DNA of 43,151 bases from Leptospirales bacterium (GTDB lineage: Bacteria > Spirochaetota > Leptospiria > Turneriellales > JAOUFE01), in NCBI GenBank assembly GCA_040326155.1, contig JBEQLE010000033.1, forward strand, positions 1 to 43,151, given 5' to 3'. Under the pieces are notes generated by a model that had not been told where the DNA came from, ran no database searches, and saw only the letters and a program-made list of their open reading frames with translations. This document shows positions 1-43,151 of this stretch, in pieces. Each line of letters begins with the position of its first letter. Position 1 is the first letter of the stretch. The translations under genes were made by a program, and so were the position numbers.

Positions 1-258
1 ATTTACAGGATTATGCATGATTTAAGATACACACCTTGTACTTACCGTTCACCACATCCCAATCCTGTAAATCATGTTAATCCTGTCTAAACCTCTTAAA
101 TAACTAAAATACAAAATCAAAGAAAAGACAATTTTGACAGGATTTACAGGATTATGCATGATTTAAGATACACACCTTGTACTTACCGTTCACCACATCC
201 CAATCCTGTAAATCATGTCAATCCTGTCTAACCCTCTTCAACCACAAAAATACAAAAT
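1..258. repeat. Tandem 141-bp repeat (~2 copies, may continue off the left edge) with internal inverted arms
   Basis: Sequence at 1 recurs at 142; arms GACAGGATTTACAGGATT (136-153) and AATCCTGTAAATCATGTCAATCCTGTC (202-228). Confidence 0.95.
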
Positions 259-22772: not shown

Positions 22773-23339
22773 ATGATGAATTTATTCGATGACCCAGAAA
22801 AAGTAATTGAATATATCAAAATGAGTAAGGGCTATAATGGTCGCAGCTTAATAGAAAAGTTGAGGGAGTATTTGCCTCATGGTTCCTCCTTGTTAGAAAT
22901 CGGAATGGGCCCAGGCAAGGATCTTGATATATTAAGTGAGGTTTACCATGCGACAGGGTCGGACAGATCTAAGTTATTTGTGAATCGCTATAATGCTATG
23001 CACCCAAACTCTGAAGCTGTTTTGTTAAATGCAGTCGATTTAAACATTGATAGAACCTTTCAAGGGATTTACTCCAACAAAGTACTTATTCATTTGAATA
23101 AAAACGAATTGGAGCAGTCATTTCAAAGCCAGTTAAATATTTTAGAGACAGGGGGCATTGCTTTTCATTCATTTTGGCGAGGAGATAAAGAAGAGTCTTT
23201 TGACGGTCTAAGGTTCGTGTATTACACAATCGAAACGATTTCTCCTTTGATCCCGCCTAAATTAAAATTGATTTATCATTATAACTACAAAGAGGATAGT
23301 GATAATGATTCTTTCGCTATTATTCTCAAGAAGATTTAG
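22773..23339 (+). CDS. Class I SAM-dependent methyltransferase
   Basis: LLEIGMGPGKD motif I; IYSNKVLIHL. Confidence 0.9.
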   Translation: MMNLFDDPEKVIEYIKMSKGYNGRSLIEKLREYLPHGSSLLEIGMGPGKDLDILSEVYHATGSDRSKLFVNRYNAMHPNSEAVLLNAVDLNIDRTFQGIYSNKVLIHLNKNELEQSFQSQLNILETGGIAFHSFWRGDKEESFDGLRFVYYTIETISPLIPPKLKLIYHYNYKEDSDNDSFAIILKKI

Positions 23340-23424
23340 TTTTAACAAATTTGACCTCCATGTCAAATTTGCGTTTGATTATACAGACAATTACATCAGA
23401 AAAAATTAAAACGTTATGTGTAAT
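23340..23424 (+). other. Degenerate attC-like site
   Basis: Directly after a stop: TTTTAACAAATTTGACCT ... ACATCAGAAAAAATTAAAACGTTATGT, matching both arms of 42082-42349. Confidence 0.65.
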
Positions 23425-40108: not shown

Positions 40109-42052
40109 TTATATGAATTTCTTTAAAAGTTCGCCCAAGAATTGACCATATGTAATAAACAACTCATCCAGTTTAAATGTTTTGTTTTCATCAATATACT
40201 TCCTCAGCTCGATTGGTATTTTATTTTTATACCCTTCCAGTAGATTTCTATTCTGTGGATAGTTTTTTTTGCAGAATATTGTCCAATTATTGATAACACC
40301 TGATGTTTCATCTGTTATTTGAAATTCTGTTTCAGTTTCTTTTTCAATTTCTTGGAGTCTAATATTGAAAAATTGACACATGAATTCTCTTGGCAATAAA
40401 TCCTCCAATGACGTGTTCTTTATTTTTTGTATGCTATCAACGTAGTCAGAGTAATATGTGAACTCACTATTATTAGTAACATAATCTTTGTCATATAAAA
40501 TCTTTTGTGAGTGTCCGCCACCGTCATTATCGGTTACGATCTGGAAATATCGATTATTGCCTGTTATCATTGTGTTTAGTGTGGTACACACTTTACTGAC
40601 ACTCGAACTCCAAGTAATTCCTATATTATCAATTAATTGAATGTTTTCTTGGCCTATACTTAATTTTTCCGTAAGTATTTTAAATACTTCTTTATCGGTC
40701 CAACCCTCAAATAATATATTTTTCTTTTTCAAAACATCAAATATGGAATGTCCTAAAGCATTGTATAATACTTCTTCTTCTGCAAAATTTTGATACGTAG
40801 TTTTAGTAATCTCTGTATTTTCTCCATTTTTATCTACAATTATATGGCGTTCAATGTTTTCTTTATCAATACAAAAAATCGAATGCGTCGCTATAAAGAT
40901 ATAATTGTTATTACTGAGCTTGAGCATCTCTTGTAATAGGTGACCGACAGCAGATGGGTGCAAACTTATATCAGGTTCATCTAATATTATAATATTATTT
41001 TTATTTTTTCTATTAGGAATACCTACTAATAGTAAAAAAGCAATAAAACGTTTATATCCTTCACTTCTAAATTTTAAGTTGATCGGGTTATGGGTATCCT
41101 GCACGCTTATATGTAACTTCCCGGCTACTTCACCAATGTAAAGATTTATATGTCGATACTCTGGCCATACTTCGTGTAAATACTCAGTAGCTTTTGTATA
41201 TAAGTGCTTTAATAATCTTTCGAATTTTTCGCCGGAAGTAAGTGCATTATCTATAGTTTCCTCAATATTATAAATATCAACTAAATGGAAAATGTTTTTA
41301 AGTGGTACTGAAATATTGGGATTTTTTTTAAAAGATTCGATGTTAATTTCTTCACTAAGTATTGAGCTCTCATTATATCTCCATTCTATAATTTCCGGTA
41401 AATTTTTTCGAACATATTCTGCTGCTTCATTACGTAGTAAATTATCGATATCCTTAATCTCAATATCTTTCAAAAATATTTGCAAATTTTTCCATTCTAC
41501 CAATTCTTCATTCGCTGCAAATATCTTTGTTTTTTCTTTATAAGCATGGCCAATCCCAGGTAAACTCATTCCTTTTTCTTCAGGGAATTTATCGGTAGGT
41601 ACAAAATAACCACTTCTCAAAATTAGCGATTCTGTATTAGTATTCATATTCACTGAATAATATTTGCCACCTTTCTCTAAAATTATATTGTAATCTATAC
41701 TACTCAGAATACTATCATAAAATTTCTGTAAACCGTCTTCATTCATTGCAATAGGCCATTTTTGAATATTATCCCCTAGAACTCTGTTGACAATACTTGT
41801 TTTATCATCTGAATCAAGTATAAAAGTATAGGTGATTATTGGATTCTCCTGTTCAAGCCGACCATCAATGGGTAGTTTTGCATCTGCATCGTAATCAAAG
41901 TTAAAATTACCATTCATACTTGTAATAGCTTTTAGAATGCTTGTTTTGCCTGTCTCATTAAAACCAATGAGTATTTTACACTTATGATCTATATCAATTT
42001 CTACCTTTTCTATTGACCGATAATTTTTAATTACTACTTTATTTAGTTCCAT
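40109..42052 (-). CDS. OLD-family ATP-dependent nuclease (ABC ATPase + TOPRIM)
   Basis: IKNYRSI, GFNETGKTS, RSEGYKR, LDEPDISLHP, ATHS, FEGWTD, TDND. Confidence 0.9.
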   Translation of the reverse strand: MELNKVVIKNYRSIEKVEIDIDHKCKILIGFNETGKTSILKAITSMNGNFNFDYDADAKLPIDGRLEQENPIITYTFILDSDDKTSIVNRVLGDNIQKWPIAMNEDGLQKFYDSILSSIDYNIILEKGGKYYSVNMNTNTESLILRSGYFVPTDKFPEEKGMSLPGIGHAYKEKTKIFAANEELVEWKNLQIFLKDIEIKDIDNLLRNEAAEYVRKNLPEIIEWRYNESSILSEEINIESFKKNPNISVPLKNIFHLVDIYNIEETIDNALTSGEKFERLLKHLYTKATEYLHEVWPEYRHINLYIGEVAGKLHISVQDTHNPINLKFRSEGYKRFIAFLLLVGIPNRKNKNNIIILDEPDISLHPSAVGHLLQEMLKLSNNNYIFIATHSIFCIDKENIERHIIVDKNGENTEITKTTYQNFAEEEVLYNALGHSIFDVLKKKNILFEGWTDKEVFKILTEKLSIGQENIQLIDNIGITWSSSVSKVCTTLNTMITGNNRYFQIVTDNDGGGHSQKILYDKDYVTNNSEFTYYSDYVDSIQKIKNTSLEDLLPREFMCQFFNIRLQEIEKETETEFQITDETSGVINNWTIFCKKNYPQNRNLLEGYKNKIPIELRKYIDENKTFKLDELFITYGQFLGELLKKFI

Positions 42053-42081: not shown

Positions 42082-42349
42082 GCATAACAAATTTTGATCT
42101 GCTCAGGCGCGACTGCGCGCGCCTTCGGGTCTCACAATTATATTTTACATCTGTTGTATGTACAGTAAAGACTATTTATCTTCTGAAGCATTATTGTAAT
42201 TGTTCGACCACATTTTGGGGCTACTTTCGTTTAACCGCCAAGCTCGCACGAAACTCTTTGGCAAATAGCCAAAGCCTACGGGAGGTTAGTTTGGTGCTCG
42301 CTTGGCTGACTTCGGAAGTCTCAAAACGTCAGATAAAATTGAAACGTTA
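42082..42349 (+). other. Long attC-like recombination site
   Basis: Arms GCATAAC-AAATTTTGATCTG and CAGATAAAATT-GAAAC-GTTA pair with one extrahelical base. Confidence 0.75.
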
Positions 42350-43151
42350 GTGCGCCAAGAAAGCTTGGCGTTTCTGGCCGGGTGAAAGTCCCGGTGAGTT
42401 AAGGACTAGCTGTCCACCTCTACCGAGTGTTGCGTCGAAACTGGTAACAGTAAGACGAAGCGTACACAGGGAAATTTGTTGGCCACAGGGGTGAGCGCCA
42501 CCCTGAAGAATATTCAGCCTCGAAAACGATATTAGGCGCGGATGGCGACGTATTTAACGTTACGGAAGCCAACACAAAAGAACCGTTATTGGCAAGGTTC
42601 TTAAGGTCCGTCGGGGTCAGAGAACGTGGCAAGCAAATAGAGAAACGTCGAGAACTTGGGAGACTCTGTAAGTTCCCGCTTTGACGGGTAGGTCCATCCA
42701 ATCGAAAAAAGAGGACGACCAAAAGTTTACAGGGAGTCGGATCAGCTCATAGTACTCTGAGGTCGGGAAAGCCGACTACATGGGAAAGGGGCTGACGGCG
42801 ATACGTAGTTTGCAAAGGAAACATTTACTGGATATGTAAAGCTGGATTAACAATGCTAACCTCACTGCAAGCAATAACAAACAAATCAAGAAGGGACAAG
42901 AAACACCGATTTCAAAATCTCGCTCGGAGTCTGAATGAAGATTTTCTTTTGGATTCTTGGCGGGGAATGAACCGAAAGGCGGCTACCGGGACTGACAAAG
43001 TAACGGTTCAGGAGTATGAAAAGAACCTGAAACGTAATGTTAAAAACCTGGTAACCTCCTGTAAGGAAAATCGATATCGGGCAAAACTGGTAAAACGGGT
43101 ATTTATACCCAAAACAGGTAGCGGGCAACGCCCATTGGGCATGCCCGCTAC
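42350..43151 (+). mobile_element. Group II intron, 5' part (truncated by window end)
   Basis: 5' GTGCG; CCGGGTGAAAGTCCCGG; GAAGCGTACACAG; EBS1 hairpin 42549-42564; DII/DIII GAGTCGGATCAGCTCATAGTAC...GGGAAAGGGGCTGA; RT ORF follows. Confidence 0.95.
42853..43151 (+). CDS. ltrA: Group II intron reverse transcriptase/maturase (partial)
   Basis: Manual translation MLTSLQAITNKSRRDKKHRFQNL...AATGTDKVT...YRAKLVKRVFIPKTGSGQRPLGMPA (RT0-RT2 start). Confidence 0.95.
   Translation, partial: MLTSLQAITNKSRRDKKHRFQNLARSLNEDFLLDSWRGMNRKAATGTDKVTVQEYEKNLKRNVKNLVTSCKENRYRAKLVKRVFIPKTGSGQRPLGMPA

Follow-up and report, generated by a model that had tools for sequence, protein, structure and literature searches.

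A probable class E group II intron in the core of an attC-like repeat, with relatives that target attC sites in integrons

A group II intron interrupts an attC-like repeat at a contig end

The window analyzed here is a whole contig of 43,151 nucleotides (nt) (JBEQLE010000033.1, called C98 below) from the assembly of a Leptospirales bacterium (GCA_040326155.1; 171 contigs, 4.26 Mb, 94.7% complete), and it ends within a group II intron that lies directly behind a structured repeat resembling an integron attC site. The features described in this section are all on the + strand. The repeat, delimited by sequence, fold, and BLAST, spans 268 nt (42082–42349) and forms the 5′ exon of the intron. It opens with an R″-type core, GCATAAC (42082–42088), which is followed after AAA by an L″-type arm, TTTTGATCTG (42092–42101), with one extra G, and it closes with an L′-type arm, CAGATAAAA (42330–42338), the spacer TTGAAAC (42339–42345), and the GTTA (42346–42349) of an R′-type core that the intron interrupts.

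The intron starts with GTGCG (42350–42354), immediately after ACGTTA (42344–42349), the preceding exon reading ...GAAACGTTA. Ribozyme domains I–III and the start of domain IV occupy 42350–42852. Within them, Infernal places the covariance model RF02005 (group-II-D1D4-6) at 42385–42626 with 142.5 bits (E 9e-41), the sole Rfam match in the window, and, used as an nhmmer query, the stretch 42350–42852 picks up the 5′ portions of relatives starting at model position 1–4. An open reading frame (ORF) beginning at 42853 stays open to the contig end (43151) and gives the 99 N-terminal residues, ending in RPLGMPA, of an intron-encoded reverse transcriptase (RT)/maturase that is 92% identical to P0001, a 431-aa metagenomic protein with a PF00078 domain. 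The GTGCG end, the D1D4 covariance-model match, and an RT/maturase ORF in domain IV together mark a group II intron; domains V and VI lie outside the window, as the contig ends first.

In domain I, a hairpin at 42549–42564, with the stem CGTA/TACG (42549–42552 and 42561–42564), displays the loop TTTAACGT (42553–42560) and aligns with the RF02005 model stem-loop located before GGAAGCCAACA. TAACGT in this loop (42555–42560) is the exact complement of ACGTTA, which would give a 6-bp pairing of exon-binding site 1 (EBS1) with intron-binding site 1 (IBS1), the last six bases of the 5′ exon. The chance of a 6-nt complement within an 8-nt loop is about 3/4096, and the hexamer match in the window carries no weight by itself; the argument depends on EBS1 varying in step with the exon across relatives. 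An earlier note on this DNA, made from the letters alone, had drawn the same features, and its coordinates all proved correct on re-reading the sequence.

The repeat is abundant in the genome. Its 52-nt 5′ module has 46 BLAST matches on 34 contigs and its 144-nt 3′ module has 58 matches; 11 of the 15 complete copies that strict anchors at both ends retrieve end in GTTA. Unoccupied copies start with GCATAAC, GCCTAAC, or AGATAAC and end with GTTATGC, GTTAAGC, GTTAGGC, or GTTAGCC, some with T at position 5, so that the attC core consensus sequences RYYYAAC and GTTRRRY stand at opposite ends. The two strands of the window copy each fold so that the ends pair, and none of 200 shuffled sequences does as well (z −5.5 and −6.6); in the minimum-energy fold of either strand TTTT-G-ATCTG pairs with CAGATAAAA, leaving the extra base in the 5′ arm. 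Arrays of 2–4 repeats are present (C106, C16), with ORFs pointing both ways. The target in this genome is attC-like only.

A short degenerate copy, TTTTAAC...AAAACGTTATGT, was recognized by eye at 23343–23420 (+), right after the stop of an ORF at 22773–23339; it is unoccupied and was not picked up by BLAST with the repeat modules. The ACGTTA to which the earlier note had pointed as an attC relic is present there, at 23411–23416, near the end of this roughly 78-nt copy.

Relatives share a CGTTR target complementary to EBS1

We scanned one genome per species and found 595 relatives in many phyla, of which 78 loci were kept. The 5′ ends were located by nhmmer with the window ribozyme, only alignments from model position 1–4 were used, and identical upstream flanks were collapsed. 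Among 42 distinct junctions (arrows mark junctions), 20 read GTTA↓, 5 GTT↓, 4 GTTB↓, and 3 GT↓ (32/42 at sites of the GTTA/GTT/GT class), and the other 10 differ; two more CCGTTA↓ copies, in L058, were dropped by the junction filter. An independent metagenome sample was picked by a pattern lying wholly within the intron, which made it blind to the exon, with a window-ribozyme match of ≥25 bits defining the family. Here, 24 of 37 distinct family junctions were at GTTR↓ or GTT↓, compared with 3 of 38 for other introns matching the same pattern, and C directly precedes GTT in 23 of those 24. The catalog of homologue insertion sites that the earlier note had called for shows, in both samples, that most homologues sit at a GTT-type junction.

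The pairing changes with the target. Among the 18 relatives whose loop was found by pattern, 12 show full 6-bp Watson-Crick complementarity between EBS1 and IBS1, compared with 3 of 286 mismatched exon/loop pairs, and exceptional exons covary with their EBS1 (AATGCG/CGCATT, AAGAGT/ACTCTT, GGGTGG/CCACCC). There is also a hint of EBS2: a run of ≥6 nt is reached in 6 of the 18 versus 17 of 304 permuted pairs, one instance being GUGGCU and AGCCAC in L046. A protein tree, built with no class-labeled reference, contains GTTA targets in every sub-branch; exceptions are nested singly, and several are one-base variants (CGTGA, CGTCA). The sister group, relatives from Bacillus and Paenibacillus at 43–46% identity, has no GTTA exon. 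Of 23 junctions, 13 are preceded by an AAC...GTT hairpin at least as strong as −0.13 kcal/nt, versus 20 of 81 intron-internal control GTT sites (Mann-Whitney p = 0.003). Across relatives, these results show that the target of the lineage is C-G-T-T-R↓, with a 3′ exon that restores GTTA↓GGC or GTTA↓TGC, and that the insertion point lies 3 nt past the G/TT crossover.

At one metagenome locus (L169), two introns of this kind adjoin in a tandem or nested arrangement, a family member following immediately on the 3′ end (...CCTACCGTGAT↓) of the other.

Relatives reside on the cassette strand in two integrons

In a Terriglobia metagenome-assembled genome (MAG) (L103), an integrase gene (IntI, 457 bits) is followed by an array whose nine ORFs of ≥70 aa ahead of the first intron all share one orientation, and several are directly followed by textbook GCCTAAC...GTTAGGC sites. 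Two introns lie on the ORF strand, as ...AGCCACGATCCGTTA↓...↓GGCGTAC and ...AGCCACCATCCGTTA↓...↓GACAGTC (both CCGTTA↓), each matching RF02005 with 111.6 bits, and the L′ arm, AGCCAC, has its complement in GUGGCU, a putative EBS2. A Desulfosudaceae MAG (L226) has an IntI (429 bits) divergent from an array of small, mostly co-oriented ORFs, and the intron is inserted about 7 kb into this array, on the cassette strand, after ...CAGACGTTA. In these two bona fide integrons, the intron sits at the R′ end of attC on the strand of the cassette ORFs. In an Akkermansia MAG (L092), an IntI (361 bits) ends 150 nt before the intron. Overall, an IntI above cut-off was found in 6 of 10 genomes with relatives and in 0 of 14 control genomes. 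A Vecturithrix genome (G063) was not counted: its four IntI genes are 30–45 kb from two intron copies, and a simple hairpin scan showed no continuous array between them.

Reading of the window copy

We read 42350–43151 as the 5′ 800 nt of a sense-oriented, IIB-type intron, most likely of class IIE, inserted after ACGTTA in the GTTRRRY-type core of an attC-like repeat, and we put the probability of this reading at about three in four.

Several observations weigh against it. The complete repeat copies measure 166–295 nt (268 nt for that in the window), where attC sites are usually about 57–141 nt long. No protein of the assembly, at its 94.7% completeness, reaches the integron integrase cut-off (best TIGR02249 score 102.7 versus 265 bits), and a recombinase on C12 is without the IntI-specific insertion. 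ORFs beside repeats run in both directions about equally, and only three of six intron 3′ junctions are followed by an ORF in the orientation of the intron; because ORF directions are mixed, the cassette strand is not readable from the genes in this genome. The window copy shows no visible EBS2-IBS2 pairing. Among the relatives, non-GTT family junctions make up 10 of 42 and 13 of 37 in the two samples, comprising one-base CGTTA variants and truly retargeted ones. The 3′ half of the window copy is unassembled, and its continuation may be C157, a truncated, dead copy. Finally, the class E label, itself probable, rests on by-eye comparison with one sequence printed in a supplement (H.ha.F1, discussed below).

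Other intron copies in the genome

The truncation in the window is due to an assembly break, not to biology: the intron is multi-copy in this genome, so the assembler broke the contig there. The contig tail (last 15–127 nt) has no k-mer in common with any other contig of the assembly; the 3′ half can therefore not be joined. A search of sequencing runs returned four runs with word shares of 0.06–0.13, with no RNA run listed, and gave no read bridging the contig end for this organism, the pieces being relatives only (the longest with 71 differences over 808 nt) plus pieces of the repeat. Searching 60 related genomes with the intron DNA gave zero matches outside its own genome.

Within the assembly, P0001 residues 214–398 map to C157:1–555 (93.5% identity) and residues 371–430 to C58:1901–2080, at 93%. 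Domain V–VI ends (...CCTACCGTGAC↓) lie at the starts of C29, C58, and C107 and inside C81, C89, and C29; each of these six 3′ ends has a domain V-like hairpin beginning GAGCC. Fragments occur at C29:4640–4925 (internally deleted), on C81 (5′-truncated), on C89, at C58:1901–2100, and as small pieces on C123 and C100. A 5′ junction at a repeat end is seen in three copies (C98, C29:4640, and C81, the last after GAAACGTT). The six 3′ exons begin GGCGAAA, TGCGAAA, TGTGCAA, or TCGGAAA and resemble the bases that follow GTTA in unoccupied repeats. The earlier expectation that the 3′ exon would complete the core is borne out by these other copies, which give GTTA↓GGC, GTTA↓TGC, and GTTA↓TGT.

The strongest alternative is that the window copy is a dead remnant that continues into C157, with an early ORF end and with domains V and VI absent. 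We consider this quite possible, although it is not the outcome we favor. The 93.5% match on C157 breaks off in just this way, the ORF ending early with no domain V after it, and most other copies in the genome are fragmentary. On the other hand, C29, C58, and C107 start within intact domain V–VI ends, any of which could be the true continuation, and the 5′ 800 nt in the window are intact with an open ORF. A dead copy here is compatible with the targeting mechanism.

A second, unrelated group II intron lies at C142:17880–19832 (loci L015 and L006), matching RF01999 (D1D4-2) with 110.9 bits, with an open frame of 447 aa and a domain V that lies where the contig ends. Its start is some 17 nt outside a repeat copy, past the R″-type end and on the strand opposite to the repeat, and a 3′ fragment of the same intron family is found at C122:5668–5750.

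Nature of the repeat and strand of the insertion

Less likely is that the repeat is no integron site at all: a lineage-specific structured repeat, similar to repetitive extragenic palindromic (REP) sequences or miniature inverted-repeat transposable elements (MITEs), that ends in ACGTTA by chance, with the intron homing by sequence alone and the integron link confined to relatives. The missing IntI, the length range, a modular make-up with optional inserts, the scatter over at least 34 contigs, and the flanking ORFs in both directions would all suit such a repeat. Set against this are the RYYYAAC...GTTRRRY ends, paired L arms whose 5′ side is longer by one base, like those of the textbook attCs in the Terriglobia integron, the small accessory ORFs between copies, which include toxin-antitoxin pairs, and the IS110-family transposase genes adjoining three copies; moreover, an assembly in 171 contigs at this completeness could miss an intI. 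We continue to regard the repeat as attC-like, and the other reading as unlikely.

It is more doubtful still that the strand has been misassigned and that the intron occupies the bottom strand at an R″ end, like the classical IIC-attC introns. The cores are palindromic (ATAAC/GTTAT), the gene beside the repeat in the window (40109–42052) is on the opposite strand, and on C106 a tyrosine recombinase stands at the "wrong" end of a three-repeat array. However, an extra base in the 5′ arm and a longer spacer in the 3′ arm are the geometry of the cassette-sense strand of the Terriglobia attCs, the relatives are on the cassette strand in both integrons examined, and the recombinase on C106 (299 aa) scores under the IntI cut-off. 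By this geometry, and by analogy with the relatives, the intron in the window would be on the top strand. The earlier claim of insertion into an attC R′ core on the top strand thus holds for the lineage, which targets the R′ core on the cassette-sense strand; for the window itself, the site is attC-like, with the strand taken from geometry and analogy.

Class of the intron and its encoded protein

Full-length relatives of the encoded protein have 428–434 aa, with RT and X domains, and end shortly after domain X, lacking an endonuclease (D/En) domain. D1D4-6 is the best Rfam model in the window and in four relatives, whereas class IIC ribozymes presumably correspond to another D1D4 Rfam model. 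RT comparison does not discriminate between classes, with P0001 scoring 146 and 142 bits against IIC, 140 bits against IIB, and 131 bits against IIA RTs in the PDB. The H.ha.F1 protein, assigned to class E by its authors, shares, by eye, about 46% identity with P0001 across roughly 200 aa, within the range seen inside the family; for unclassified plasmid-borne relatives, the best identity is ≤44%. The intron is probably an endonuclease-less, IIB-type intron, most likely of bacterial class E (IIE). The earlier proposal that it looks class D/E-like and not IIC stands as far as the exclusion of IIC is concerned, given RF02005, the 431-aa RT plus X protein, and the 6-bp EBS1-IBS1 pairing, while class E itself is probable only.

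It is extremely improbable that the intron belongs to the known IIC-attC lineage as a divergent member, even though both lack an endonuclease domain, insert at the foot of a DNA hairpin on its 3′ side, and target attC, since the best ribozyme model is RF02005, the RT scores show no preference for IIC, EBS1-IBS1 is 6 bp long, and the relatives are cassette-sense at the R′ end (as, by hairpin geometry, the window copy would be) where IIC-attC introns are described as antisense (PMC3001079).

Relation to known introns and a proposed mechanism

Group IIC-attC introns (S.ma.I2 and relatives; Leon, Quiroga, Centron, and Roy) enter the bottom strand at the R″ end, between an ORF and its attC. They run antisense to the cassettes and drive cassette expression from an outward-facing promoter within the intron (PMC3001079). 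Like the lineage described here, they are endonuclease-less, target attC, and insert within a core box at the foot of the attC hairpin. They differ in being class C and bottom-strand, whereas our lineage is IIB-type, with a 6-bp EBS1 for C-GTTA, and inserts cassette-sense at the R′ end, so that it could be spliced from the cassette transcript.

A 2015 review by Zimmerly and Semper assigns attC targeting, in its accessible text, to class C only and describes priming by replication for introns without an endonuclease (PMC4424553). The premise of the earlier note that attC introns are IIC and bottom-strand only is outdated. Sonbol and Siam (2021, Mob DNA 12:8; PMC7923331) described UHB.I2, a CL1/IIB1 intron that immediately follows an attC and is oriented with the cassettes, and H.ha.F1 and H.ha.F2, two 5′-truncated class E fragments with hairpins upstream in a cluster of attC sites lacking integron integrases (CALIN) of Halorhodospira halochloris, a genome in which no intI was found; the H.ha.F1 protein sequence is given in their Additional file 1. 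The same paper cites a single case, from 2012, of a class IIC intron in the top strand of attC, which is alike in its cassette-sense attC insertion and differs in its class. H.ha.F1, H.ha.F2, and UHB.I2 resemble our lineage as non-IIC introns tied to cassette arrays. For the two H.ha fragments, however, the 5′ end is absent, so no junction, EBS1, or IBS1 is visible, and a role of the hairpin was speculated.

Group IIE ribozymes (Cl.be.I2 and others; Nagy et al. 2013, RNA 19:1266) depend on EBS1, and not on EBS2, to splice in vitro (PMC3753933). They share with the present intron an IIB-like domain I, an essential EBS1, an apparent EBS2, and a protein without an endonuclease domain; that work differs in concerning splicing in vitro only, and "attC" has 0 occurrences in its accessible text. 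A requirement for EBS1 but not EBS2 fits entry into attC sites that vary upstream of the core.

In the literature covered, which leaves aside subscription journals and bioRxiv supplements, PMC7923331 was the only paper linking non-IIC introns to attC, and none stated the CGTTR↓-EBS1 rule or its lineage-wide spread. PMC7923331 is a partial precedent: its accessible text does not contain the pairing of EBS1 to the R′ core, a lineage-wide CGTTR↓ target, or EBS1 covariation. The earlier suggestion of an independent attC-homing lineage is tempered by that precedent.

We lean toward the view that a sub-lineage of class E introns ("IIE-attC") became an attC specialist independently of IIC-attC, with EBS1 fixed on C-GTT-R, entering past the crossover in cassette sense, co-transcribed, spliceable, mobile with the downstream cassette, and spread through the integrons or orphan attC arrays of many phyla; here it would occupy giant attC-like repeats without a visible integrase. 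In this scheme, the intron would be transcribed together with the cassette and spliced out with the aid of its encoded protein. The resulting ribonucleoprotein would then reverse-splice into other attC R′ cores, where EBS1 would read sequence common to all attC sites and EBS2, in some members, would additionally read the L′ arm. As the intron has no endonuclease, we propose that priming would be provided by replication. With its insertion point 3 nt past the crossover, the intron would belong to the downstream cassette at excision and leave with it; carriage at the head of the next cassette is what this geometry predicts.

If so, a second intron lineage would have converged on this site, reaching it through simple base pairing on the opposite strand and at the opposite end. 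An intron that is in sense and spliceable need not silence downstream cassettes and may ride along when they are excised. The EBS1-CGTTR rule, sometimes extended by EBS2 and the L′ arm, is directly testable by retargeting-style assays, and it may serve as a marker where standard models might overlook attC sites, as with the 166–295-nt repeats of this genome.

Genes and other elements around the repeats

The gene that abuts the R″-type end of the window repeat (40109–42052, − strand) reads away from it and encodes an ATPase resembling OLD, Gabija GajA, and PARIS AriA (Pfam AAA_15, 94 bits; PADLOC Old, 100.7 bits), a defense-type accessory gene of a kind commonly seen in cassette arrays. The genome has three matches to IS110-family transposases (PF02371), at C97:6016–6264, C100:35282–35524, and C104:23530–23775, each at most about 900 nt from a repeat module (C97:6340–6507, C100:36368–36543, and C104:23172–23237, respectively). 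If, as is known for an IS1111 subgroup, such elements target attC sites, their positions fit the repeats being attC-like.

A further short element, recognizable by its constant terminus (TTATATGAAAAGCTACCC...), splits at least four repeat copies at differing internal positions; its sites are C29:6387, C148:225, C161:483, C166:681, and C149:74356. Behind the terminus, two copies have some 200 nt of structured sequence, and on C149 no ORF of ≥90 aa lies behind the end of the element.

Units between repeats at C157:800–1330, C58:2150–2307, C107:200–300, and C29:4990–5040 have their own TTGACA-N17-TATAAT-like promoter before small ORFs, and the ORF pair on C157 resembles a toxin-antitoxin pair by eye. 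Such promoters, if real, would make these units independent of an upstream integron promoter.

At the far end of the window (1–200), the first 55 bases of the contig recur at position 142, with shorter matches on C35, C113, and C130, marking another short repeat.

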